Translations under genes and position numbers: made by a program
Part shown: in pieces, positions 4,942 to 26,013 of the stretch
Layout: the number at the start of each line of letters is the position of its first letter
Position numbering within the stretch: the stretch's first letter is position 1
Assembly: GCA_964595665.1 (NCBI GenBank)
Contig: CAZQQS010000004.1
Span: forward strand, 10,719-42,718
Origin: an uncultured archaeon
GTDB taxonomy: Archaea > Iainarchaeota > Iainarchaeia > Iainarchaeales > 0-14-0-20-30-16
Length of the DNA stretch: 32,000 bases
Reading direction: 5' to 3'
Notes under the pieces: generated by a model
Told to the model about the DNA's origin: nothing
The model's input: only the letters and a program-made list of their open reading frames with translations
Database searches by the model: none

Positions 4942-6039
4942 TCACTTTTTATCTTTTTTATCATTCATTAATTTCTTTATTAAATTAGAATTTTGTTCTT
5001 TATAAAGCATCAATTCATCTAATTTATTATTTATATCATCTAAATTATTTGCTTTATTAGATTTTAAACTATTTTCTAAATCCATAAATCTTTTATTTAA
5101 ATCCATAATAGAATCATCATATTTACTAAATTCTAAAGAATTTTTCAATTCTATTATTTTTGTTCCCACAATAGCATTTATTTTACCTTCTAAATCTTTT
5201 ATAGTATTTAATTTATCTAAAGCTAATTTTATATCCTCAACATTTAATTTAGTTTTAAAATCCTTCATAAAGTCATTTATTTTAGACTCTAAAGTATCAT
5301 CTATTTTGTTTTTTGCAGAATTAACTAAATTATCTAATATTTTTGCAGAAATATTTAATGTACTATTAGTTTTTGCAATAATCTCATCAGCTTTAACTTT
5401 ATATTGGTTATAAAAATTATCTAAATCTCTATTACTTTTATTTTTTAATTCTTCAATTGTATTAGATGCCGTTTGTTTAATATTTTGAATTGCATCCATT
5501 TGTGTTTGCAAAGTATTTTTTAAATCTTCTAAATTTGTAACTATTTTATCAAAATCATCTAATTTCTTTTGAGTGTTTAAATTTACATCTTGTAATACTT
5601 TTAAAGTATTTTCTACTTCAGTTTTAATTTCTTTAATTCTTGATGCTAAAGACATATCCATTTTAGAAACTAATAATGTTCTTTGTGAATCAATTATAGT
5701 TTTCATTTTAGCAATTTCTGTTGAAGTAATTTGTTTAACACTTTCTTTGATTTGTGAATCTAACTCCAATTGTTTCTTATTAATTTCATCTAATTTTTGA
5801 TTTACTAAAGTTACCATTCCTTCAGACCAAACATCATTTTGAGAAGAATCTTCAATTAATAAGTCTTGTTTCTTTGGTTTTTTATCTTTATCATTGGATT
5901 TTTTATTCTTAAAAGATTCTAAAGTCTTTTTTGCATAATCGTAATCTACGCCAGCATCAACTAAACTTGCGACAATATCTTCATCTTCCATACCTAAAGA
6001 AATCATCTTCTGAATACTTTCGATAATAATCTCATCCAT
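4942..6039 (-). CDS. Long coiled-coil protein with an N-terminal UBA-like three-helix module
   Basis: The N-terminus IQKMISLGMEDEDIVASLVDAGVDYDYAKKTLESF resembles the UBA consensus. A Lys-rich linker (KKSNDKDKKPKKQ) follows, then about 290 aa of uninterrupted coiled-coil-like sequence. Confidence 0.55.
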   Translation of the reverse strand: MDEIIIESIQKMISLGMEDEDIVASLVDAGVDYDYAKKTLESFKNKKSNDKDKKPKKQDLLIEDSSQNDVWSEGMVTLVNQKLDEINKKQLELDSQIKESVKQITSTEIAKMKTIIDSQRTLLVSKMDMSLASRIKEIKTEVENTLKVLQDVNLNTQKKLDDFDKIVTNLEDLKNTLQTQMDAIQNIKQTASNTIEELKNKSNRDLDNFYNQYKVKADEIIAKTNSTLNISAKILDNLVNSAKNKIDDTLESKINDFMKDFKTKLNVEDIKLALDKLNTIKDLEGKINAIVGTKIIELKNSLEFSKYDDSIMDLNKRFMDLENSLKSNKANNLDDINNKLDELMLYKEQNSNLIKKLMNDKKDKK

Positions 6040-6089
6040 ATTATATATAATAAGTATAGCTTTATATTTTTAATCTTTATTAATTTTTA

Positions 6090-6590
6090 ATGGATTCTTT
6101 AATATTTGTAGAAAAATGCGCCCTTTTGTTTAATAATACACATTTTTTAAATCTTTTTTGGGAAATAATTACAAATTTATTTCCAATTATTTTAATTATT
6201 ACATTAATATTTTTAGTGCATAAAAAAAAGAATTATATTTATTTAGCAATATTTGCTTTAAATTTAACTTTGGGATTATTATTAAAAAAAATAATTACTT
6301 TATTTTATTTTAGTCCGAGACCTTATGAGCTATTAAATTTAGTTAAAACAAATATTATGGACAATTCGTTTTTTAGTAATCATACTTTTTTAGTATTTGT
6401 TACAGCTTTTTTTATAATTCAAATAACTGATAATAAAATAATAAAATATTCTGCAATAATTTTAGCAATAATTACTGCATTTTCGAGAATAGTTTTAGCT
6501 CAACATTATTTAATAGATATTGTATTTGGGCTAATATTTGCCCAAATATTTTATATAATAAGCATTAAAGTGTATAAAAAATATTTTTAA
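6090..6590 (+). CDS. PAP2-superfamily membrane phosphatase
   Basis: The three PAP2 motifs occur in order: KKIITLFYFSPRP (KxxxxxxRP), SNH (PSGH-like) and SRIVLAQHYLIDIV (SRxxxxxHxxxD). The protein is multi-TM. Confidence 0.7.
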   Translation: MDSLIFVEKCALLFNNTHFLNLFWEIITNLFPIILIITLIFLVHKKKNYIYLAIFALNLTLGLLLKKIITLFYFSPRPYELLNLVKTNIMDNSFFSNHTFLVFVTAFFIIQITDNKIIKYSAIILAIITAFSRIVLAQHYLIDIVFGLIFAQIFYIISIKVYKKYF

Positions 6591-11443: not shown

Positions 11444-12745
11444 ATGGAGTTTCAAGAATTAAAAGGCATTAAAGAATATTTACCTGAAGAACAAGAAGTT
11501 CGAGAGTATATTACTGATATATTAAAAACTAATTTTAAAAAATATGGTTTCAAGCCTTTAGAAACAAGTATATTAGAAGACTTTGCTATTGCTTCTAGCA
11601 AATATGCTGGTGGAGAAGAAATCTTAAAAGAAACTTATAAATTAACAGATCAAGGGGAAAGAAAACTTTGTTTGAGATATGAATTGACTTTCAAATTAGG
11701 TAAATTAATTGCATTAAATCCAACATTAAGAATGCCATTAAAAAGATATGAAATTGGAAAAGTATTTAGAGATGGTCCAGTAAAAACTGGAAGACTAAGA
11801 GAATTTACTCAATGTGATGTTGATGTTGTTGGTGTAAAAAATCTAGCTTTAGAAGCAGAATTTATTGCAATGTCTTTTGATATTTTTAATAATTTAAATT
11901 TGCCTATAAACATCCAAATCAATAATAGAAAATTATTGTTTGGTTTATTTGAAGCTTGTAATATCCCTGAAAAAGAATTTATTAACACAGCTTTATCTTT
12001 AGATAAATTAGAAAAAATAGGCGAAAAAGATGTTAGAAAAGAATTAAATGAAATTCTAAATGAGGATTCTATTGACGCTTTATTTGAATTATTAAATGCC
12101 TGTAATTCTTTAAATAATAACTCAAAAAAATTAGAATTTTTAAAAACAAAATGCCAAAACAAATTATTTTTAGAAGGTTATAATGAATTAAATGAAATCT
12201 TTTCTTATGCTAAAGATTTGGGCATAAAAGAAAATTTTTATTTTATACCAACATTATCTAGAGGATTAGGTTATTATACTGGTCCAATGTGGGAAGTATA
12301 TTTACAAAAATCAAAAATAAAATCAAGTGTTGCTGCTGGAGGTCGTTGGGATTCAATGATTCAAAAATTCTTAGAAAGCGATAGAGAATATCCTGCATCA
12401 GGAATGACTTTTGGATTAGATGTTATTTATACAGCATTAAAAGAAGATAATATAAAATTAAATGATTTTCAAAAAACTCCCAAAGTATTAATTATACCTT
12501 TAGATAAATTAAATACTTGTTTAGAATTAGCTACAGAATTAAGAAATAATAATATTAGCGCAAGTATAGCATATGATGATAAATTAAGTAAAGCTTTAGA
12601 TTATGCAAACAAAGAATTAATTGAATATATTATTGTTGTAGGTAAAAAAGAAATCGAAACTAAATTATTTGGTTTAAAAAATATGCTTTCTGGTGAAACT
12701 AAAAATCTAAACTTAAAAGAAATGATTAATGAATTAAATCATTAA
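11444..12745 (+). CDS. hisS: Histidine--tRNA ligase
   Basis: Class II motifs: LRYELTFKL, KRYEIGKVFRDGPVKTGRLREFTQCDVDVVG, RGLGYYTGPMWEVY, AAGGRWDSMI and GMTFGLDVI. I placed the start at ATG 11444 after a GTGAT SD; the track start at 11435 is GTG. Confidence 0.9.
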   Translation: MEFQELKGIKEYLPEEQEVREYITDILKTNFKKYGFKPLETSILEDFAIASSKYAGGEEILKETYKLTDQGERKLCLRYELTFKLGKLIALNPTLRMPLKRYEIGKVFRDGPVKTGRLREFTQCDVDVVGVKNLALEAEFIAMSFDIFNNLNLPINIQINNRKLLFGLFEACNIPEKEFINTALSLDKLEKIGEKDVRKELNEILNEDSIDALFELLNACNSLNNNSKKLEFLKTKCQNKLFLEGYNELNEIFSYAKDLGIKENFYFIPTLSRGLGYYTGPMWEVYLQKSKIKSSVAAGGRWDSMIQKFLESDREYPASGMTFGLDVIYTALKEDNIKLNDFQKTPKVLIIPLDKLNTCLELATELRNNNISASIAYDDKLSKALDYANKELIEYIIVVGKKEIETKLFGLKNMLSGETKNLNLKEMINELNH

Positions 12746-12753
12746 TTATATAA
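12746..12753 (+). promoter_or_regulatory. TATA-box-like element upstream of the hydrogenase gene (possible leaderless transcript)
   Basis: TTATATAA sits immediately after the hisS stop, with its centre about 25 nt upstream of ATG 12775. No SD motif lies between them. Confidence 0.35.
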
Positions 12754-12774: not shown

Positions 12775-13917
12775 ATGGCTGAAGAAATTTATATTAATAA
12801 GTTTGATGATCTAATTAAAACTATTGAAAATGAGAGAAAAAAAGGCAAAATTCTAATAGCACAATTAGCTCCTGCTGTTCGAATTACTATTGGTGAAGAA
12901 TTCGGATATATTGCCGGAGAAAATTTAACTAAAAAATGTTTTAGTGTTTTAAAACAATTAGGATTTGATTATATTTTTGATACCCCTTTAGGTGCTGATT
13001 TAGCAGTATATGAAGAAGTTCATATATTAAAACAATTATTAGATTCTAAAGATGAAAGCTTTTTTCCATTATACAATTCTTGTTGTATTGGGTGGAAAAG
13101 ATATGCTGAGCGAATGCATTCTTATTTAATGCCTCATGTTTCTTCAATAGCTTCACCTAACCAAATTGTTGGAAGTATAGCTAAAAACTATTTAAGCAAA
13201 AAAATTAATAAAAAAGTTTCTGATATTGTTGTAGTTGGAATAATGCCTTGCACTTTAAAAAAGTTTGAAACTTTAGATACTTTTGATTATTTTGAGAATA
13301 ATAAAAAGAAAAATGCAAAATTTGTTGATTATGTTGTTACTACTTTAGAATTAACACAATGGATTAAAAATAAAAATATAAACTTTCACGAAATAAAAGA
13401 TATAGATGTAATAAATACAGCATCAAAAGAAGGAACTATTTTTGGAGTAACAGGTGGTGTAACAGAATCTTTTTTAACTGCTTTTGCAAAATATTTAGGA
13501 GAAAAAAAAGAAATCTTAGATTTTAGAGAAAATGAAGAATTACGAACATATAAAGTTAAAATTGGGGAATATGAATTAAAAGTTGCAATTGTTTTTGGTA
13601 TAGGAAATATAAATAAAATCTTAGAACAAATTGCTGAAGGTGAATTTTATCACTTTGTTGAAATGATGTTTTGTACTAATGGCTGTGTTGGAGGTCCTGG
13701 ACAACCAAAGTGTTCAGAAAGTGTTCTAGAAGAAAGAGCAAAAGCTATGCGAAATACAGCAGATAAAATCCCTAAAATAACTTGTTTTGATAATAGTGCA
13801 TTATTAAAAATTTATTCTGAATTAAATATTACTCCCAATTCAGAAAAATCAAAAAAATTATTCTTTTTAAAACAAGAAAATAAAAAAGAATCTAAAAAAA
13901 TATTATCTTGGAATTAA
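12775..13917 (+). CDS. hydA: [FeFe]-hydrogenase catalytic subunit, H-cluster domain only
   Basis: Motifs in order: QLAPAVR, FDTPLGADLAVYEE, L1 NSCCIGW (TGTTGT at 13081-13086), SSIASPNQ, L2 IMPCTLKKFE, VTGGVTE and L3 EMMFCTNGCVGGPGQP. The C-terminal FDNSALLKIYSELNITPNSEKSKKLF resembles the small-subunit-like tail. About 25 aa precede the H domain and there are no ferredoxin-like Cys clusters. Confidence 0.85.
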   Translation: MAEEIYINKFDDLIKTIENERKKGKILIAQLAPAVRITIGEEFGYIAGENLTKKCFSVLKQLGFDYIFDTPLGADLAVYEEVHILKQLLDSKDESFFPLYNSCCIGWKRYAERMHSYLMPHVSSIASPNQIVGSIAKNYLSKKINKKVSDIVVVGIMPCTLKKFETLDTFDYFENNKKKNAKFVDYVVTTLELTQWIKNKNINFHEIKDIDVINTASKEGTIFGVTGGVTESFLTAFAKYLGEKKEILDFRENEELRTYKVKIGEYELKVAIVFGIGNINKILEQIAEGEFYHFVEMMFCTNGCVGGPGQPKCSESVLEERAKAMRNTADKIPKITCFDNSALLKIYSELNITPNSEKSKKLFFLKQENKKESKKILSWN

Positions 13918-15949: not shown

Positions 15950-16597
15950 TTATTTCCAACCATATGTAACTCTATGTTCTAAAAATCCAGTAATTGTTTT
16001 ATAATTTAATTTTTGTAAAAATTTTTCAACATCACTATCAGTTGTTTTGTCATTAATAATATGATATGTTGCAATTGCTAAATTTATTTCATTATTTTTT
16101 AATAAATTCTTTGCACTTTTTAAAACATATAATTCAGAACCTTCAACATCCATTTTAATAAAATTAGGAATTAATTTTAATTCTTTTGAAATAGTATCTA
16201 ATTTTATTACGTCTATGGCTTTACTTTTTAACACCTCATTTTCAAATATAAAAGATGAACCTCTTGAAGTTCTTTCATAAAAATCTTTTTTGCCATCAAT
16301 ATCAAAAACACCTTTATTAATTGCCACAACATTTTTTAATTTGTTTAACTCTAAATTAGCCAACAATTTTCTATAAGATATTTTATCGGGTTCAAAAGCA
16401 ATTACTTTTCCTTTTGGGCCAACTAATTTAGAAGCAATAATAGTAAAACAGCCAACATAAGAACCCAAATCAAAAACCACATCTCCTTTTTTCAAGTTAT
16501 ATTTACCAAAATACCCTTGCATTATGTTTAGATCTTTATCCAAATTATTGTGGCTTTTAAACTTAATTCCTTGAAAAGAGTAGTCTTTAATATCCAT
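15950..16597 (-). CDS. FkbM-family SAM-dependent methyltransferase
   Basis: VVFDLGSYVGCFTIIASKLVGPKGKVIAFEPDKISYRKLLANLELNKLKNV...IKMDVEGSELYVLKSAKNLL is the typical FkbM pattern. Confidence 0.8.
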   Translation of the reverse strand: MDIKDYSFQGIKFKSHNNLDKDLNIMQGYFGKYNLKKGDVVFDLGSYVGCFTIIASKLVGPKGKVIAFEPDKISYRKLLANLELNKLKNVVAINKGVFDIDGKKDFYERTSRGSSFIFENEVLKSKAIDVIKLDTISKELKLIPNFIKMDVEGSELYVLKSAKNLLKNNEINLAIATYHIINDKTTDSDVEKFLQKLNYKTITGFLEHRVTYGWK

Positions 16598-16648
16598 AGA
16601 ATTAGAAAATAGGGAGAGCTTTTTAAATCCTTCTTTTTTACTATTTAT

Positions 16649-17251
16649 ATGTTTAAACTTATTGTTTTTAATCTTTGGGATACTTTAGCAAAAATTAATG
16701 GTAAACAAACATTAGACTTACTAATTAAAGAATTTAAAATTAAAGATAAGAAAGTATTCAAAAGAAAATTTAATGAAATTTATTTAACAAAACATTGGAA
16801 TTCTAAATTTGAAGCTTACAGAGAAATCTGTAGAGAGTTGAATTTGGGAACAGATGAAAATACAATTAATAAAGCAATAAATATTTCTAATAAAAATCTA
16901 ATTACTATAGAAGTCTTTCCTGAGACATTAAAACTATTACAAAGTTTAAAGAAAAAATACAAATTAGGGATATTATCTAATACAAGTATATTTTTAAAAA
17001 ACATTTTAGAAAAAGAAACTAAAATTTTAAAATATATTGATTATCCTTTGTTCTCATATGATTTAGGTGCAATTAAACCAGAAATAAAAGTATTTAAAAA
17101 TTTATTAAATATTACAAATTTAAAACCTGAAGAAATACTCTATATTAGTAATGATAACACAAAAGATTTAAAACCCGCAAAATCTTTAGGTATGAAAACG
17201 CTTTTATTTAAAGATTTAGAGCAATTAAAAAAAGATTTAGAGGAATTATAA
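16649..17251 (+). CDS. HAD-superfamily hydrolase-like protein with a non-canonical motif I
   Basis: HAD motifs II-IV are recognisable: LGILSNTS, GAIKPE and ISNDNTKDLKPAKSLGM. Motif I reads FNLWDT (16667-16684), with Asn at the nucleophile position. Confidence 0.7.
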   Translation: MFKLIVFNLWDTLAKINGKQTLDLLIKEFKIKDKKVFKRKFNEIYLTKHWNSKFEAYREICRELNLGTDENTINKAINISNKNLITIEVFPETLKLLQSLKKKYKLGILSNTSIFLKNILEKETKILKYIDYPLFSYDLGAIKPEIKVFKNLLNITNLKPEEILYISNDNTKDLKPAKSLGMKTLLFKDLEQLKKDLEEL

Positions 17252-17649
17252 TGGATTGTGTGTTTTGTAAAATAGTTAAAGGAGAAATACCTTGTCATAA
17301 AATATATGAAAGTAATAATTATTTATGCTTCTTAGATATAAATCCAATAACTGAAGGGCACGTATTATTAATACCTAAAAAACACATTGATTATGTTTTT
17401 GATATGCATAGAAATGAATATTCTAGATTGTTCTTAGAAGCAAAAATGATTGCTGAAAAATTAAAAAAGGCAACAAATGTAAAACGAATTGGCATAACAA
17501 TAGAAGGTTTTGCAGTTCCTCATGTTCATATACATTTGGTGCCGTTAACAAAAGGAAATCAATTAAATCCAGAAAATGCAAAACCTTTAAGCCATGATAA
17601 ATTAATAACAATAGCTGATAAAATTAAAAAACAATTTTTGGAGGAATAA
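17251..17649 (+). CDS. HIT-family (histidine triad) nucleotide hydrolase
   Basis: CVFCKI...GHVLLIPKKH...PHVHIHLVP carries the HxHxHxx triad. Its ATG overlaps the TAA of the upstream HAD gene (TAATG), and a GAGGA SD precedes it. Confidence 0.9.
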   Translation: MDCVFCKIVKGEIPCHKIYESNNYLCFLDINPITEGHVLLIPKKHIDYVFDMHRNEYSRLFLEAKMIAEKLKKATNVKRIGITIEGFAVPHVHIHLVPLTKGNQLNPENAKPLSHDKLITIADKIKKQFLEE

Positions 17650-17651
17650 AA

Positions 17652-17777
17652 ATGAAAAAGTTAATTAATAAAATAAAAGGTATTTTTGGTAAAAAAAAGG
17701 AAATTAAAGAGAAAAAAGAACTAAAACCAAAGGAAAAACCTAAAAAAAAGAAAGTTTCAAAAAAAGCTAAAAAATGA
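17652..17777 (+). CDS. Possible 41-aa lysine-rich micro-protein
   Basis: Not in the track. A GGAGG SD (17640-17644) lies 7 nt before ATG 17652. The ORF reads MKKLINKIKGIFGKKKEIKEKKELKPKEKPKKKKVSKKAKK, then TGA at 17775-17777. A hairpin follows. Confidence 0.35.
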   Translation: MKKLINKIKGIFGKKKEIKEKKELKPKEKPKKKKVSKKAKK

Positions 17778-17791
17778 TTAAAACTAAAAAC

Positions 17792-17820
17792 TGCTAAAGC
17801 AAAAAACCTAAGCTTTAGCA
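17792..17820 (+). terminator. Hairpin followed by a T-run downstream of the HAD-HIT-microORF unit
   Basis: A 9-bp stem TGCTAAAGC / GCTTTAGCA (17792-17800 and 17812-17820) with an 11-nt loop, then AGTCTAATTTTT. Confidence 0.35.
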
Positions 17821-17941
17821 AGTCTAATTTTTAAAACCACGAGATTCCTTTTTAAACTGAATTAACTTAATATATTTAGTTTTTGGAAAGGGTGATAATT
17901 TGAATTTCAATGTTAATGGAGTAAGAGGCAATACGCCTAAA

Positions 17942-18064: not shown

Positions 18065-18685
18065 TTATTTTATTACTTTACCAGTTTCAATATACCATAA
18101 ATATAAATCTAATTCTGCCAAGTTTAAATTGGCTTTTTTTCCTATTTTTTCTAGTATTCTTTCTGCGTCTAAATATACTTTTGGAGTAATCGTTTTTGGT
18201 TTTATAATTAATTTATTTTTAACTAATAGATCTAAAATATGAAAATCAATAATTGCTAAATTTTCATAACCTATATTTCTTAAAAAATGACTTGACTCTT
18301 TTAAACCTAAACCTTTAACATTTTTTGCTAAATAATCTCTTAATTCAAATTCATCTTTAATATCATCTAAAATATTTCTTAAATTATGTTTTCTTGCTTC
18401 AACAATATATTTTGCCCTAGTATTAGGAAATCTATGACCCAATTCTTTTAATTTTTCAGCTAACTTATTTTCATCTAATGTAAATAATTTATCTTGTAAA
18501 GTATTTTGAATCTTTAATGATTTTTCTGCATTAAAATTTGCTGCCATTAAACAAAAACATAATTCTTGAAATAATAAATTATTAGATGTTTTCTTCAAAG
18601 ATTTAAAGTCTTTTATTTTATTATCAATTATATTTTTTATTTCTGTTTTCTGTAAAATTTTTATTTTATTTATTAAATCAATCAT
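18065..18685 (-). CDS. ogg: 8-oxoguanine DNA glycosylase/AP lyase, archaeal Ogg2 type
   Basis: It appears co-linear over its whole length with what I recall of archaeal Ogg2 proteins: ELCFCLMAANFNAE, LGHRFPNTRAKYIVEAR, VKGLGLKESSHFLRNIGYENLAIIDFHIL and LDLYLWYIETGKVIK. I placed the start at ATG 18685 after GTGA; the track start at 18709 is TTG. Confidence 0.9.
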   Translation of the reverse strand: MIDLINKIKILQKTEIKNIIDNKIKDFKSLKKTSNNLLFQELCFCLMAANFNAEKSLKIQNTLQDKLFTLDENKLAEKLKELGHRFPNTRAKYIVEARKHNLRNILDDIKDEFELRDYLAKNVKGLGLKESSHFLRNIGYENLAIIDFHILDLLVKNKLIIKPKTITPKVYLDAERILEKIGKKANLNLAELDLYLWYIETGKVIK

Positions 18686-18689
18686 AATT

Positions 18690-19256
18690 TCACATAAATC
18701 TTTTTTCAACTATCTTCCAATCAATTGAATTAAAAATTGTGTTAACATAATCTACTTTTTTTAAACCATAATCTAACATATATGCGTGTTCAAAAACATC
18801 TATTACCAACAATATATCTAATCCAGCTAATAATCCTAAATCATGTTCATTTACCCAAATATTAAATAATTTATTTTCTAAAGAATCATATGCTAATACT
18901 ACCCAACCTATGCCTCTCATAGCTGTTAAAGATTTAAATTCTTTCTCGAAATTATCAAAAGAGTTATATTGTTCAAGAATTAATTTCCCTATATTTGATT
19001 CCGCATTAAATTTTATTGGATTTAAAGACAAATTTTCAAAATATAATTCATGTAATCTCATTCCATTAAATTCCCAACCAAATCTTCTATGTAATTCCGC
19101 ATATTCTGGACTTGCTTTATCTAAAGTACTTAACAAAGTTAATAATTTATTTGTATTATTTACATATCCCTGATACAAAGTAAAATGATTTTTTAATAAA
19201 TCATTTGATAAACCATTTATTCCCAATAAAAAATCATAATTTTTTATTTCATACAT
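18690..19256 (-). CDS. sod: Fe/Mn-family superoxide dismutase (divergent)
   Basis: Residues at the four metal-ligand positions are visible: NHFTLYQGYV (His), RLHELYFENL (His) and DVFEHAYMLDY (Asp and His). I placed the start at ATG 19256 after a GGTGA SD; the track start at 19277 is GTG. Confidence 0.85.
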   Translation of the reverse strand: MYEIKNYDFLLGINGLSNDLLKNHFTLYQGYVNNTNKLLTLLSTLDKASPEYAELHRRFGWEFNGMRLHELYFENLSLNPIKFNAESNIGKLILEQYNSFDNFEKEFKSLTAMRGIGWVVLAYDSLENKLFNIWVNEHDLGLLAGLDILLVIDVFEHAYMLDYGLKKVDYVNTIFNSIDWKIVEKRFM

Positions 19257-19323
19257 ATTTTCACCTATAAAAGACACCCAAAACCCTTTTTAAACATTAT
19301 TATTTTCCAAAATAAAACATACA

Positions 19324-21414: not shown

Positions 21415-22350
21415 TTAATTCTTATGTAAAAATTTATAAGCAGTTTCAGAAGCTAAAGCTCCAGTTGCAACTGCAGAAACAATTTGTTTCATACCATTTA
21501 ATGCATTAGCACAATCACCAGCAGCATATAATCCTTGAACATTTGTAGACATATCAGCATTTACTTTAATATAACCACTATCATCTAATTCTAAATTTAA
21601 TTTTTGTGTTAGATTTAATACTGGAATACTTCCAGCTTCAATAAAAACACCATCTAATTGCAATTCTTTTGTTTCATTAGTTTTTACATTTTCTAAAACT
21701 ATATTTGCAACTTTCATTGTGCCAGTAATCTTATTTACAACAGTATTTAAAATAAATTCTACTTTTTCACATTTCCTTGCTAAATCAATCTCAGTAGCAT
21801 CCGCTCTAAATTCTTCTCTTCTATGTATTAAATAAACTTTATTTGCAAATTTTGATAAATGTAATACTGCTCCAAAAGCAGAATTCCCTCCACCAACAAC
21901 TGCAACAGTTTTATTCTTAAAAAACGGAGCATCACAAGTGGCACAATAGCTTACCCCTCGCCCTAAGAACTTATCTTCGCCTTCAATATTCAATTTTTTT
22001 CTTTTTGTTCCGGTTGCAATAATTACAGTTTTAGATCTTATTATCTCATTACCATCTGTTAACAACTCAAACACTTCTTTTTTATTAATTTCAACAACAT
22101 TTTTTGTATATAATTCACCATTTAATGATAAATAATGTTCTTGCATTTTATTACTCAAATCCATTCCTGTAATGCTACTAAACCCAGGATAATTCTCTAT
22201 TAAATGTGTTTGAGAAACATATCCTCCGGGCACATCTCCAATTAATAAAACATCTAAATTATATCTTTTAGCATAAATTCCCGCACTATAAGATGCTGGC
22301 CCCAATCCTATTACTATTAAATCATAAATCTTATTTTCATAATTACTCAT
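21415..22350 (-). CDS. trxB: Thioredoxin-disulfide reductase
   Basis: FAD motif DLIVIGLGPASYSAG, redox centre CATCDA, NADPH motif VVGGGNSAFGAVLHL...HRREEFRA, and YAAGDC. I placed the start at ATG 22350 after a GTGAT SD. Confidence 0.9.
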   Translation of the reverse strand: MSNYENKIYDLIVIGLGPASYSAGIYAKRYNLDVLLIGDVPGGYVSQTHLIENYPGFSSITGMDLSNKMQEHYLSLNGELYTKNVVEINKKEVFELLTDGNEIIRSKTVIIATGTKRKKLNIEGEDKFLGRGVSYCATCDAPFFKNKTVAVVGGGNSAFGAVLHLSKFANKVYLIHRREEFRADATEIDLARKCEKVEFILNTVVNKITGTMKVANIVLENVKTNETKELQLDGVFIEAGSIPVLNLTQKLNLELDDSGYIKVNADMSTNVQGLYAAGDCANALNGMKQIVSAVATGALASETAYKFLHKN

Positions 22351-22383
22351 AAACATCACTTCAATTAATTCTACAAATATAAA

Positions 22384-24208: not shown

Positions 24209-25960
24209 TCACTCCAAAATTGCTTTAATTCTTCTTATTCCAGATGCTGAAGATTCTTCTTTAATGATTTTAAACTGTCCCAACTCTTTTACATTATTAA
24301 CATGAGGCCCCATACAAATTTCTTTAGAATAATTTCCAACACTATAAACAGATACTTTTTCAGGATATTTTAATCCAAATTCGCTTTGAGCACCGGATTT
24401 CATTGCTTGTTCTAAAGACAATTCTTCTTTTTTAATTTCTAACCCTAAAGATATAACTCTATTTACTTCATCTTCTATTTTTAATAACTCTTCTTTAGTT
24501 AATGCTCTATCAAAATTAAAATCAAATCTTAGTCTTTCTGATGTAATATTAGAGCCTTTTTGTTTAATATCTTTACTTATAATTTTTCTCAATGCTTCAT
24601 TTAATAAATGTGTAGCTGTATGTAACTTTATTGTCATTTCACTCGAATCAGACATACCGCCTTTAAACTTTTGCTCAGAACCTTTTTTAGATAATTCTTG
24701 ATGTTTCTTAAATTCTTCTTGTATTGAACCAACATCTAATTTAATGTTTTTTTCTTTTGCTAATTCAATAGTCATCTCAATTGGAAAACCAAAACTTTGA
24801 TAAAGTAAAAATGCATCTTCACCATTAATTTCTTTCCATTTCAAAACTATTTTCTCAAATTCTTTTAATCCTTGTAATAAAGTATTTCTAAATTTTAATT
24901 CCTCTTTATTCAATTCATCAATTATTATTTTTTTATTTAGTTCTAATTCAGGATACCATTCTTTGTAAATAGAAATATATTCTCTTGCTATACTTTCAAC
25001 AAAATTTTCTTTTATTCCTATTTTATTTGCAAATACAATTGCTCTTCTAATTAATCTTCGCAATATATAGCCTCGATCCTTATTGCTTGGTAAACAACCA
25101 TCGCCAATTAAAAATGTAGACGCTCTTAAATGATCAGCAACAACTCTAAATTCTTTTTTATAATTCTCATATTTCTTACCACTTAATTTTGCAATTTGTT
25201 GTATTACTGGTAAAAACAAATCTGTTTCATATGCACTTTCTTTTCCAGAAATTATTGCCAATGTTCTTTCAAAACCCATTCCAGTATCAACATTCTTTTT
25301 AGGCAATTCTTCTATCTCTCCAGAAGGTAATCTATTGTACATCATGAAAACATTATTCCAAATCTCAACCCATTTATTATCATTTGGATCAAACACTTTT
25401 GGTGTTGGATTTGCACCAGTCCAATAAAATATTTCTGAATCAGGACCACAAGGACCTGTTTCTCCTGCTTGCCAAAAATTATTTTCAGCATCTAAAAAAG
25501 CAATTCTATCTTTGCTAACTCCCTGTTCTTCCCAAAATTTTGCAGAGTCTAAATCCTTAGGAACTTTAGAATCTCCTTGATAAACAGTAAAAGCCAATTT
25601 CTCTTTATTAATGCCCAACCATTTAGGATTAGTTAAAAACTCATAACTAAAAGCAATTGATTCTTTTTTAAAATAATCACCTAAAGACCAATTTCCCAAC
25701 ATTTGGAAAAAAGTATGATGAGTATTATCTCCAATATTATCAAAATCAACAGTTCTTAAACATTTTTGAATATTTACTAGCCTTACGCCTAAAGGATGTT
25801 TCTGGCCCATCAAATAAGGCACTAAAGGTTGCATTCCAGCAGTATTAAACAAAACAGTAGGATCATTATTAGGAACTAAAGAAGCAGAAGGTATTTCTAC
25901 ATGTTTTTTTGTAATAAAAAAGTCAATATATTTCTTTCGCAATTCATTACCAGTAATCAT
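24209..25960 (-). CDS. alaS: Alanine--tRNA ligase, bacterial-type, lacking the C-Ala domain
   Basis: FFITKKHVEIPSASLVPNNDPTVLFNTAGMQPLVPY...IQKCLRT...HHTFFQMLGNWSLGDYFKKESI is the bacterial-type catalytic core. The editing-domain motifs HTATHLLNEAL and CMGPHV are present. The ORF ends right after ASGIRRIKAILE, giving about 583 aa. I placed the start at ATG 25960; the track start at 25978 is TTG. Confidence 0.9.
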   Translation of the reverse strand: MITGNELRKKYIDFFITKKHVEIPSASLVPNNDPTVLFNTAGMQPLVPYLMGQKHPLGVRLVNIQKCLRTVDFDNIGDNTHHTFFQMLGNWSLGDYFKKESIAFSYEFLTNPKWLGINKEKLAFTVYQGDSKVPKDLDSAKFWEEQGVSKDRIAFLDAENNFWQAGETGPCGPDSEIFYWTGANPTPKVFDPNDNKWVEIWNNVFMMYNRLPSGEIEELPKKNVDTGMGFERTLAIISGKESAYETDLFLPVIQQIAKLSGKKYENYKKEFRVVADHLRASTFLIGDGCLPSNKDRGYILRRLIRRAIVFANKIGIKENFVESIAREYISIYKEWYPELELNKKIIIDELNKEELKFRNTLLQGLKEFEKIVLKWKEINGEDAFLLYQSFGFPIEMTIELAKEKNIKLDVGSIQEEFKKHQELSKKGSEQKFKGGMSDSSEMTIKLHTATHLLNEALRKIISKDIKQKGSNITSERLRFDFNFDRALTKEELLKIEDEVNRVISLGLEIKKEELSLEQAMKSGAQSEFGLKYPEKVSVYSVGNYSKEICMGPHVNNVKELGQFKIIKEESSASGIRRIKAILE

Positions 25961-26013
25961 AAATCTCACTAAATTCAATATAATAGATATATAATAAGTA
26001 TAATATATTTAAA

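Follow-up and report, generated by a model that had tools for sequence, protein, structure and literature searches.

A predicted H-domain-only [FeFe]-hydrogenase, native to a DPANN archaeon, with replacements in the outer proton pathway

The window considered here, by which we mean the whole 32-kb stretch of DNA that was analysed, contains at positions 12775-13917 (forward strand, stop codon included) an open reading frame (ORF) of 380 residues that starts with ATG, matches Pfam family PF02906 and is referred to below as hydA. An earlier note on this DNA had described the ORF as a stand-alone H-domain [FeFe]-hydrogenase, and the ORF and all of the motifs that it quoted are present: QLAPAVR (residues 30-36), FDTPLGADLAVYEE (68-81), NSCCIGW (101-107), SSIASPNQ (123-130), IMPCTLKKFE (156-165), VTGGVTE (225-231) and EMMFCTNGCVGGPGQP (296-311). 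The TGTTGT at 13081-13086, also given in that note, corresponds to the codons for C103 and C104. The protein holds eight cysteines in total, and a CxxCxxCxxxC module is absent both from hydA itself and from all six frames of the 32-kb window. Upstream lies hisS, encoding histidyl-tRNA synthetase (HisRS), and 3 nucleotides (nt) downstream a convergent gene for a 90-residue winged helix-turn-helix (wHTH) protein with weak MarR_2/HTH_45 matches, which are the neighbours that had been named.

With respect to domain layout, the catalytic H-domain proper spans residues 25-308 (12847-13698, forward strand) and matches the Fe_hyd_lg_C model over its full length (positions 1-245 of 245; E = 2.4e-66; 224.3 bits against a cut-off of 22.1), leaving about 25 residues ahead of it, as had been estimated. 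It is followed by a small-subunit-like helical wrap at residues 316-363 (13720-13863, forward strand), which is marked by a Fe_hyd_SSU match below the cut-off (E = 7e-4; 20 bits against 24) and by helices at residues 315-330, 341-349 and 357-363 in an AlphaFold2 (AF2) model, and which aligns to the C-termini of CpI and of HydA2 of the hydrogen-dependent CO2 reductase (HDCR). The two profiles together cover residues 25-363 of the 380, so that the failure of coverage which the earlier note would have taken as a refutation did not occur. The AF2 model, built from an 85-sequence alignment, has a predicted local distance difference test score (pLDDT) of 92.3 and a predicted template modelling score (pTM) of 0.91, with disorder only in the last 12 or so residues. 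When compared by Foldseek with HydA of Thermoanaerobacter kivui HydABC, CbA5H and CpI, it gave TMq values of 0.82-0.85 and a probability of 1.00, with 31-35% identity across some 365 aligned columns. The full-length Pfam match, whose E value lies well outside anything due to chance, and the fold bear out the earlier proposal of a stand-alone H-domain.

The residues expected to hold the H-cluster are all in place on the forward strand. In the L1 motif NSCCIGW (13075-13095), C103 corresponds to the proton-relay cysteine C299 of CpI and C104 to the [4Fe-4S]H ligand C300, and I105 stands for P301. The L2 motif MPCTLKKFE (13243-13269) contributes M157 (M353), C159 (the ligand C355), K162 (K358) and E165 (E361), and the L3 motif EMMFCTNGCVGGPGQP (13660-13707) contributes M298 (M497), C300 (the ligand C499) and C304 (the bridging ligand C503), with P308 in the place of G507. 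The four cysteine ligands C104, C159, C300 and C304 are invariant in 108 of 108 members of the clade of minimal proteins described below, as are C103, K162, M157, M298 and E165 of the 2Fe subsite and relay. Within the subclade of 13 proteins to which the window ORF belongs, the inner proton-pathway residues E279 and S319 never vary; S319 and S320 are represented in hydA by S123 and S124 (13141-13146, forward strand).

Regarding the group to which the enzyme should be assigned, searches of the Protein Data Bank returned matches with E values from 1.3e-60 to 1e-48, the best of them group A enzymes, with the T. kivui HydABC HydA at 1.3e-60 and HDCR HydA2, CbA5H, CpI, DdH and CrHydA1 as the other closest solved structures. 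NCBIfam models for group A scored 265-290 bits, and the group B1 model reached 116 bits. Two cysteines and an upstream proline, P98 (CpI P294), are found in the L1 loop, in which P301 is replaced by Ile and T297 by Asn; the pairing of a two-cysteine loop with P294 speaks against the group B form TSCCCP and suggests that of group A (bioRxiv 10.1101/2025.03.17.643706).

Other members of the wider family fit less well. No PAS or signalling domain of the kind found in the sensory groups C and D accompanies the H-domain in hydA, and C299 is kept. The protein likewise differs from ultraminimal group E in its length of 380 residues, its retained small-subunit-like C-terminus and its best matches, which are group A enzymes. 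Nar1/NARF proteins are eukaryotic, carry an N-terminal Cys cluster and have lost the 2Fe-subsite residues; a place among them, which the earlier note had regarded as fatal to its proposal, is contradicted here by an archaeal host, the lack of an N-terminal Cys motif and invariant 2Fe-subsite residues. Taken together, these observations lead us to regard hydA as encoding a genuine [FeFe]-hydrogenase composed of an H-domain and a short C-terminal wrap, which would produce H2.

The relatives of hydA were sought in a homologue search over 5.8 billion proteins and in an exhaustive phmmer scan over 1.84 billion representatives. In the former, about 100 H-domain-only homologues (291-394 residues) rank ahead of the first long bacterial proteins; the named close homologues come from Micrarchaeota (including Bilamarchaeaceae and Anstonellales) and Iainarchaeota, and bacterial proteins reach at most 42% identity to hydA. 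The latter gave 3,444 relatives, of which 330 had E <= 1e-30, while a GTDB genome scan yielded one related locus and a metagenome scan eight, one of which is bacterial and M3-type. The top match of the exhaustive search is a database protein, P0246, of 4,122 residues, which is rich in Ala and Gly, has the L1 sequence TSCCASW and contains seven H-domains: six follow one another at an exact spacing of 444 residues with an identical L3 CEGGCMNGAGQ, and the seventh is divergent. Gene calling may here have fused a tandem array of genes, the assembly may be at fault, or the protein may be a real poly-hydrogenase.

A neighbour-joining tree (Kimura-corrected distances, 262 sequences, 329 columns, 200 bootstraps) separates a minimal clade of 108 members, at 83% bootstrap, from 154 mostly long group-A-like proteins. 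Nested within it is a subclade of 13, comprising the window ORF and its homologues P0001-P0012, which has 100% bootstrap support and is at most 50% identical to the other members of the minimal clade. Because the internal nodes of that clade reach only 7-29% bootstrap, the relations among the DPANN phyla cannot be read from the tree.

The clade can also be recognized from its motifs. The Pro-to-Ile change in L1, which the earlier note had listed as an oddity of this ORF, is real, but it proves to be a signature of the clade: CpI position 301 is I, V or T in 107 of its 108 members, as compared with Pro in 146 of the 154 long group-A-like proteins. Further signatures are Pro at CpI G507, which gives GGPGQP in L3, and Leu at CpI 357, which gives MPCxLKK in L2, so that NSCC(I/V/T)GW in L1, MPCxLKK in L2 and GC(V)GGPGQP in L3 offer a clade-wide recognition signature.

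Proteins of this kind are already known. The minimal group A1 [FeFe]-hydrogenases, with a mean length of 363 residues, were described from Iainarchaeota, Micrarchaeota and Nanoarchaeota, alongside an ultraminimal group E with a mean of 286 residues (Greening et al. 2024, Cell 187:3357, PMC11216029). The earlier note's statement that minimal archaeal [FeFe]-hydrogenases had recently been reported was correct in this respect, and hydA appears to fall in a clade of that type. It shares with minimal group A1 an H-domain-only layout of about 363 residues (380 here), the lack of accessory Fe-S clusters, a DPANN host, a solitary gene in genomes that usually lack HydEFG, conserved H-cluster cysteines and variable proton-transfer residues, and it clusters with minimal proteins named Micrarchaeota and Iainarchaeota at the 83% node. 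It differs in its Nanoarchaeota/Woesearchaeota-type host and in belonging to a separate 13-member subclade with no acidic residue at the position of CpI E282.

The genomic setting provides a second line of evidence, one that concerns the origin of the gene. Among the proteins of the window are TrmB, NMD3, DUF2226, Sm/LSM, Ogg-HhH, HisRS, a short alanyl-tRNA synthetase (AlaRS), TruD and adenylate kinase, together with a weak class III signal peptide match; these confirm the archaeal character that had been claimed for the window. A hydrogenase identical to hydA (P0121) and an AlaRS (P0126) are recorded on one NCBI contig, and the nearest named relatives of the AlaRS, at 61-66% identity, are all from Nanoarchaeota or Woesearchaeota. 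The host thus appears, on this evidence, to be a DPANN archaeon of the Nanoarchaeota/Woesearchaeota type.

Gene order is kept in independent assemblies. An 89%-identical orthologue, P0002, is found in the same order in an NCBI metagenome-assembled genome, GCA_030154545.1, and on a 103-kb Joint Genome Institute (JGI) contig, namely NMD3, PAP2, AMMECR1, CBS protein, NYN, DUF2226, MinD/ParA, LSM, HisRS and hydA. Among the related loci, numbered with the prefix L, L002 and L003 keep the order NMD3...LSM-HisRS-hydA and L005 keeps part of it, and the neighbourhood of P0007 (66% identical) is partly kept on a 94-kb contig. The downstream wHTH gene was considered as a dedicated regulator of hydA and rejected: in L002, which is 89% identical, it is not kept, and hydA is followed by other genes.

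These data bear directly on the suggestion that hydA is bacterial DNA, mis-binned or chimeric, or a gene acquired horizontally in the very recent past. Bacteria and eukaryotes are the classical holders of [FeFe]-hydrogenases, and the closest solved structures, at 31-35% identity, are bacterial. Nonetheless, the same gene occurs with the same archaeal neighbours in independent NCBI, JGI and Logan assemblies, and its composition is indistinguishable from that of the flanking housekeeping genes (GC 25.8% in a window of 23.8%; GC at third codon positions, GC3, 10% versus 10.8% for hisS). The roughly 100 nearest homologues are all minimal, those with names are DPANN, and bacterial proteins stay at or below the identity limit given above. 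The ratio of nonsynonymous to synonymous substitution rates (dN/dS) against four orthologues is 0.14, 0.11, 0.27 and 0.21, and hydA is under purifying selection. Contamination, chimerism and recent transfer are excluded by the synteny, the matching composition and the low dN/dS, and we consider this alternative effectively refuted.

On the strength of these results, the best explanation in our view is that hydA encodes a catalytically competent, monomeric [FeFe]-hydrogenase of the minimal group A1 type, native to a Nanoarchaeota/Woesearchaeota-type archaeon. We assign this reading, whose catalytic part we infer, a probability of roughly 0.85.

An issue for any such enzyme is how its H-cluster is made and who supplies its electrons. 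Genes for maturases (radical-SAM proteins or a HydF-like GTPase), ferredoxin, pyruvate:ferredoxin oxidoreductase (PFOR), NuoE/F-like proteins or small subunits, and hydB or hydC, are found neither in the 32-kb window nor in the flanks of L001-L009, L012 and L013; these flanks cover no more than 10 kb on each side, and far less where the contig is short. Six-frame scans of the window and the minimal-type loci for CxxCxxCxxxC and for the radical-SAM motif CxxxCxxC returned only spurious out-of-frame matches. The earlier statements that a ferredoxin-like Cys-rich module and a partner-subunit ORF are lacking, and that hydE, hydF, hydG and ferredoxin genes are missing within 32 kb, therefore stand; the absence of hydEFG should not, however, be read as a local surprise, since it is the published rule for archaeal genomes. 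Any maturase at all is present in only 8 of 130 archaeal genomes with such hydrogenases, and one closed genome is without them (PMC11216029).

One could accordingly imagine that the protein is never matured in vivo and exists as an apo or [4Fe-4S]-only protein, for example in a Nar1/NARF-like Fe-S role. The failure to find hydE, hydF or hydG in either the window or the DNA flanking the related loci, the lack of a CxxxCxxC radical-SAM ORF and the general scarcity of maturases in archaeal hydrogenase genomes would be in keeping with such a fate. Yet the residues that serve solely the 2Fe subsite and the relay (C299, K358, M353, M497, E279 and S319 in CpI numbering) are invariant, at dN/dS of 0.11-0.27, and hydA has no N-terminal Cys cluster of the kind typical of Nar1. 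Moreover, H-cluster binding in vitro is known for archaeal enzymes whose genomes encode no maturases, and Asgard archaea that lack maturases produce H2 in culture (PMC11216029). We therefore judge an unmatured protein to be very improbable. For a matured, active hydA, the question of HydEFG-independent maturation extends to this protein as well.

The feature that sets hydA apart lies in the path by which protons reach the cluster. The helix EEVHILKQL (residues 80-88; 13012-13038, forward strand), placed by HMMER alignments to 8a6t and CbA5H and by a MAFFT census, sets E80 opposite CpI E278, E81 opposite E279, I84 opposite E282 and L88 opposite R286. Of the four HMMER alignments to solved structures, three pair Ile84 with E282 and the fourth has a gap opposite E282; the assignment is robust. 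Further along, KKLFF (residues 360-364; 13852-13866, forward strand) aligns with the site of the group A double-histidine motif H565...H569, here K360 and F364. The canonical pathway C299-E279-S319-E282(-R286) is consequently incomplete, with C103, E81 and S123 present and I84 and L88 in place of E282 and R286. The S320-H569-E278 'SHE' motif, which together with H565 forms the proton entrance in group A (bioRxiv 10.64898/2026.09.22.753672), is incomplete as well: S124 and E80 are present, and H569 and H565 are replaced by F364 and K360.

These replacements follow the phylogeny. At the E282 site the 13 subclade members have I, V, A or N and never an acidic residue, as compared with E or D in 77 of the 95 remaining clade members and E in 149 of the 154 long group-A-like proteins. 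R286, for which the window has Leu88, is Arg in none of the subclade, in 9 of 95 in the rest of the clade and in 132 of 154 long proteins. At H565 the subclade has mostly Lys, the rest of the clade a mixture of E, K and R, and the long proteins His in 81 of 154, and at H569 the subclade has Phe (five), His (four), Tyr (two) and Cys (two), with His in 9 of 95 and 141 of 154, respectively, elsewhere. The three basal members of the clade (P0109, P0111 and P0260) retain the full canonical set, and the entrance was therefore lost within the minimal clade. Two residues were considered as compensating candidates and rejected. H83 is not conserved in the subclade (H/C/K/P/Y), and K86, invariant there, lies on another helix face by simple i+2 geometry.

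Judged by these alignments, the outer replacement represents a real departure from canonical group A, one missed by the earlier note, and the subclade-specific loss of the canonical proton entrance is the only notable twist of this enzyme. The proton-transferring residues of archaeal enzymes have been said to differ, in general terms only (PMC11216029). A separate observation concerns P0027, P0050 and P0079 of an Iainarchaeota-type branch, which have Asp-Gly at CpI E278-E279 and so appear to have lost the inner, normally essential proton-pathway glutamate, with the alignment possibly off by one residue there. Loss of E279 might be linked to the 100-fold lower activity of the Iainarchaeum enzyme relative to that of Micrarchaeota.

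How much the outer residues matter can be gauged from CpI, in which E282A keeps about 50% activity via water rescue, E282Q 8%, and R286A is mild in effect, while E282L is described as inherently low in activity and changes at H569 or S320 cause strong impairment (PMC6226526; bioRxiv 10.64898/2026.09.22.753672). These values bring up the alternative that hydA belongs to the same family but is a slow catalyst, which would take up H2, poise the redox state or exchange H2 in both directions, at low flux, with a pool derived from a host. The presence of I84, L88, K360 and F364 in place of E282, R286, H565 and H569, with an incomplete S320-H569-E278 motif, is what such an enzyme might show, given that CpI E282Q, E282L and H569A are strongly impaired and that group B enzymes without the motif work at 2-10% of CpI activity. 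The published enzyme 'Ia' of 'Ca. Iainarchaeum andersonii' is, in addition, 100-fold less active than the Micrarchaeota (UBA95) enzyme 'Mu' despite high similarity (PMC11216029), and oxidative-stress genes (superoxide dismutase, Ogg and a thioredoxin-reductase-like protein) lie in the conserved neighbourhood of hydA.

Set against this, neither a sensory or output domain nor a partner of the uptake type is present, and the inner pathway and C299 equivalent of hydA are intact, unlike those of group C and D sensors. CpI E282A keeps roughly half of the activity, surface positions tolerate change, and the condensed loops of the minimal scaffold may already leave S123 and S124 exposed to solvent. 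Mu and Ia evolve H2 after maturation with [2Fe]adt, and the minimal archaeal enzymes characterized so far are biased to H+ reduction (PMC11216029). We consider a slow catalyst with one of these other roles unlikely, while ranking it above the unmatured protein.

Several points nonetheless weigh against the competent minimal hydrogenase that we favour, and they should be kept together. The outer proton pathway is missing, a state to be compared with the impaired E282Q and E282L variants of CpI, and a bulky Ile at the E282 site could make for a slow enzyme. The electron donor and the maturation route are locally unsupported because no ferredoxin, PFOR or maturase lies nearby. The curated NCBIfam cut-offs are missed by both group A models (TIGR02512, 265 against 406; NF040763, 290 against 765), the scores falling short because the N-terminal cluster domains are absent and only the H-domain part is matched (positions 68-374 of 375); the group B1 model, too, stays below its own cut-off. 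Finally, the phylogenetic placement comes from a neighbour-joining tree as its sole source, and likeness to group A1 was judged by the published description and the named relatives rather than by the Mu and Ia sequences.

In the mechanism that we propose for a competent hydA, C104, C159, C300 and C304 would bind the [4Fe-4S] part of the H-cluster, with C304 bridging to a 2Fe subsite held in a pocket of K162, M157, M298, A32-P33 and P128. Protons would pass to the azadithiolate amine via C103, E81 and S123; since the entrance formed by E282, R286, H565 and H569 is absent, they would have to enter near S123/S124 from solvent or by another route, and this non-canonical entry would probably lower the turnover or change the response to pH and Zn2+ as compared with CpI. 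Because hydA lacks accessory Fe-S clusters, a soluble low-potential carrier would have to dock directly at the [4Fe-4S]H face. The likeliest carrier would be ferredoxin reduced by a 2-oxoacid:ferredoxin oxidoreductase, as with algal HydA1. Maturation would proceed without locally encoded HydEFG, by the route inferred for most archaeal [FeFe]-hydrogenases, and the physiological role would be the venting of fermentative reductant as H2. Ferredoxin-driven fermentative H2 evolution is the most likely function of hydA, and ferredoxin-dependent fermentation is also the role proposed for minimal group A1, for which assays of H2 evolution with Mu and Ia lend support (PMC11216029). A more specific idea, to which we give less than even odds and which we hold only tentatively, is that the subclade as a whole works without the outer group A proton pathway, having a hydrophobic residue for E282 and neither R286 nor the double-His/SHE entrance, that protons take a different and shorter way into the stripped-down scaffold, and that maturation needs no HydEFG.

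Comparison with characterized systems helps to place the protein. Chlamydomonas reinhardtii HydA1 (M1-type, 3LX4) is likewise H-domain-only and shares the fold and motifs (E = 4.6e-50), and the direct reduction of [4Fe-4S]H by ferredoxin known for HydA1 would apply to hydA by extension. The algal enzyme differs in its 457 residues, its algal insertions, a TSCCP loop, a full pathway including E144, R148 and the double His, and maturation by HydEFG. CpI and T. kivui HydABC HydA (group A, M3-type), the best matches to the H-domain and wrap, have about 200 N-terminal residues with F-clusters that are absent in hydA, and the outer proton pathway, the L1 Pro, L3 GGGGQP and the Ala/Ser positions of L2 differ between them and hydA. 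The ultraminimal group E enzymes ('Ca. Forterrea multitransposorum' Fm; Nanoarchaeota Na) share with hydA a DPANN host, a monomeric H-domain-only form and a proposed fermentative role. Group E differs in its shorter mean length, its further loop deletions, its position as sister to sensory group C and its identity of about 28% to the nearest characterized relative.

Of direct relevance to the host are the trimeric group A3 HydABC hydrogenases of Woesearchaeota, with which hydA shares the host phylum and the catalytic family (Huang et al. 2021, PMC8421398; PMC11606122). The difference is that hydA is without N-terminal cluster domains and that HydB/HydC-type genes are absent from the window. 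Woesearchaeota [FeFe]-hydrogenases have been reported mainly or only as trimeric A3 (PMC8421398; PMC11606122), and a minimal form in a Woesearchaeota/Nanoarchaeota-type lineage is a modest extension. The enzyme type itself was published and shown active in 2024; hydA is a further member and not a discovery. What it adds is that H-domain-only [FeFe]-hydrogenases are vertically maintained and selected in a further DPANN lineage, which leaves the 2024 picture unchanged. If the subclade enzymes are active, they would constrain models of proton delivery and, at about 43 kDa and with one cluster each, would also be attractive small scaffolds. Should the tentative idea of a shorter proton entry and HydEFG-free maturation be right, the subclade would in addition put the histidine 'pendulum' model to a natural test and offer a minimal chassis for engineering.

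In terms of expression, hydA has its own TATA-like box, as had been claimed: TTATATAA at 12746-12753 (forward strand), directly after the hisS stop codon (12743-12745), starts 29 nt and ends 21 nt before the ATG. No GGTG/GGAG-type Shine-Dalgarno (SD) sequence lies between the box and the ATG. L002 and L004 have this box at the same position, and L001 carries another TATA-like sequence, TATTTATAA, at about -30. Over the 39 genes of the window, TTAWAWA was seen 11 times at -35 to -26 from the start codon, where its frequency in the window as a whole predicts about 1.6, an excess to be read with the caution that intergenic DNA is richer in AT than the window average. The box is thus a putative promoter, and it is plausible from these signals that the hydA mRNA is leaderless or near-leaderless.

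The ATG at 12775 is supported as the start by the N-terminus M(A/P)EEIY, which is kept among the orthologues. In P0005, P0006 and P0008, and in L002/L003 10001-10015, the database start lies five residues upstream of this motif (MAFLV..., MYIII...); these longer versions, beginning at an in-frame ATG inside the AT-rich promoter region, are probably start-codon mis-calls. At the other end of the protein, a Lys-rich tail of about 13-20 residues that ends in (I)L(S/N)W is confined within the subclade to the window ORF and P0001-P0004. In the window ORF it corresponds to residues 369-380 (13879-13914) and is predicted to be disordered (pLDDT <50).

Among the other genes, the AlaRS (24209-25978, reverse strand) has 589 residues, with a catalytic core and a tRNA_SAD domain, and its roughly 120 closest homologues all have 578-620 residues. 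Typical archaeal AlaRS is much longer than 589 residues. Scans of the window for tRNA genes and Rfam families gave no matches. Overlapping genes for an Ogg-HhH glycosylase and an Fe/Mn superoxide dismutase, and a thioredoxin-reductase-like flavoprotein, occupy 18065-19277 and 21415-22359 (both reverse strand), and this oxidative-damage cluster lies within the conserved neighbourhood of the O2-sensitive hydrogenase. The 89% orthologous locus L002 has an extra peroxiredoxin and an AsnC-type regulator at 16090-17858, absent from the window.

Initiation signals across the window are mixed. About 12 of the 39 genes have a GGTG/GGAG-type SD 5-10 nt upstream, and many first genes have a TATA-like box at about -30 and no SD. 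The 50-nt divergent intergenic region at 6040-6089, between the genes at 4942-6039 (reverse strand) and 6090-6590 (forward strand), is TATA-like almost throughout in both directions (ttatatataataagtatagctttatattttt) and resembles a compact promoter that would serve two leaderless genes, one in each direction.

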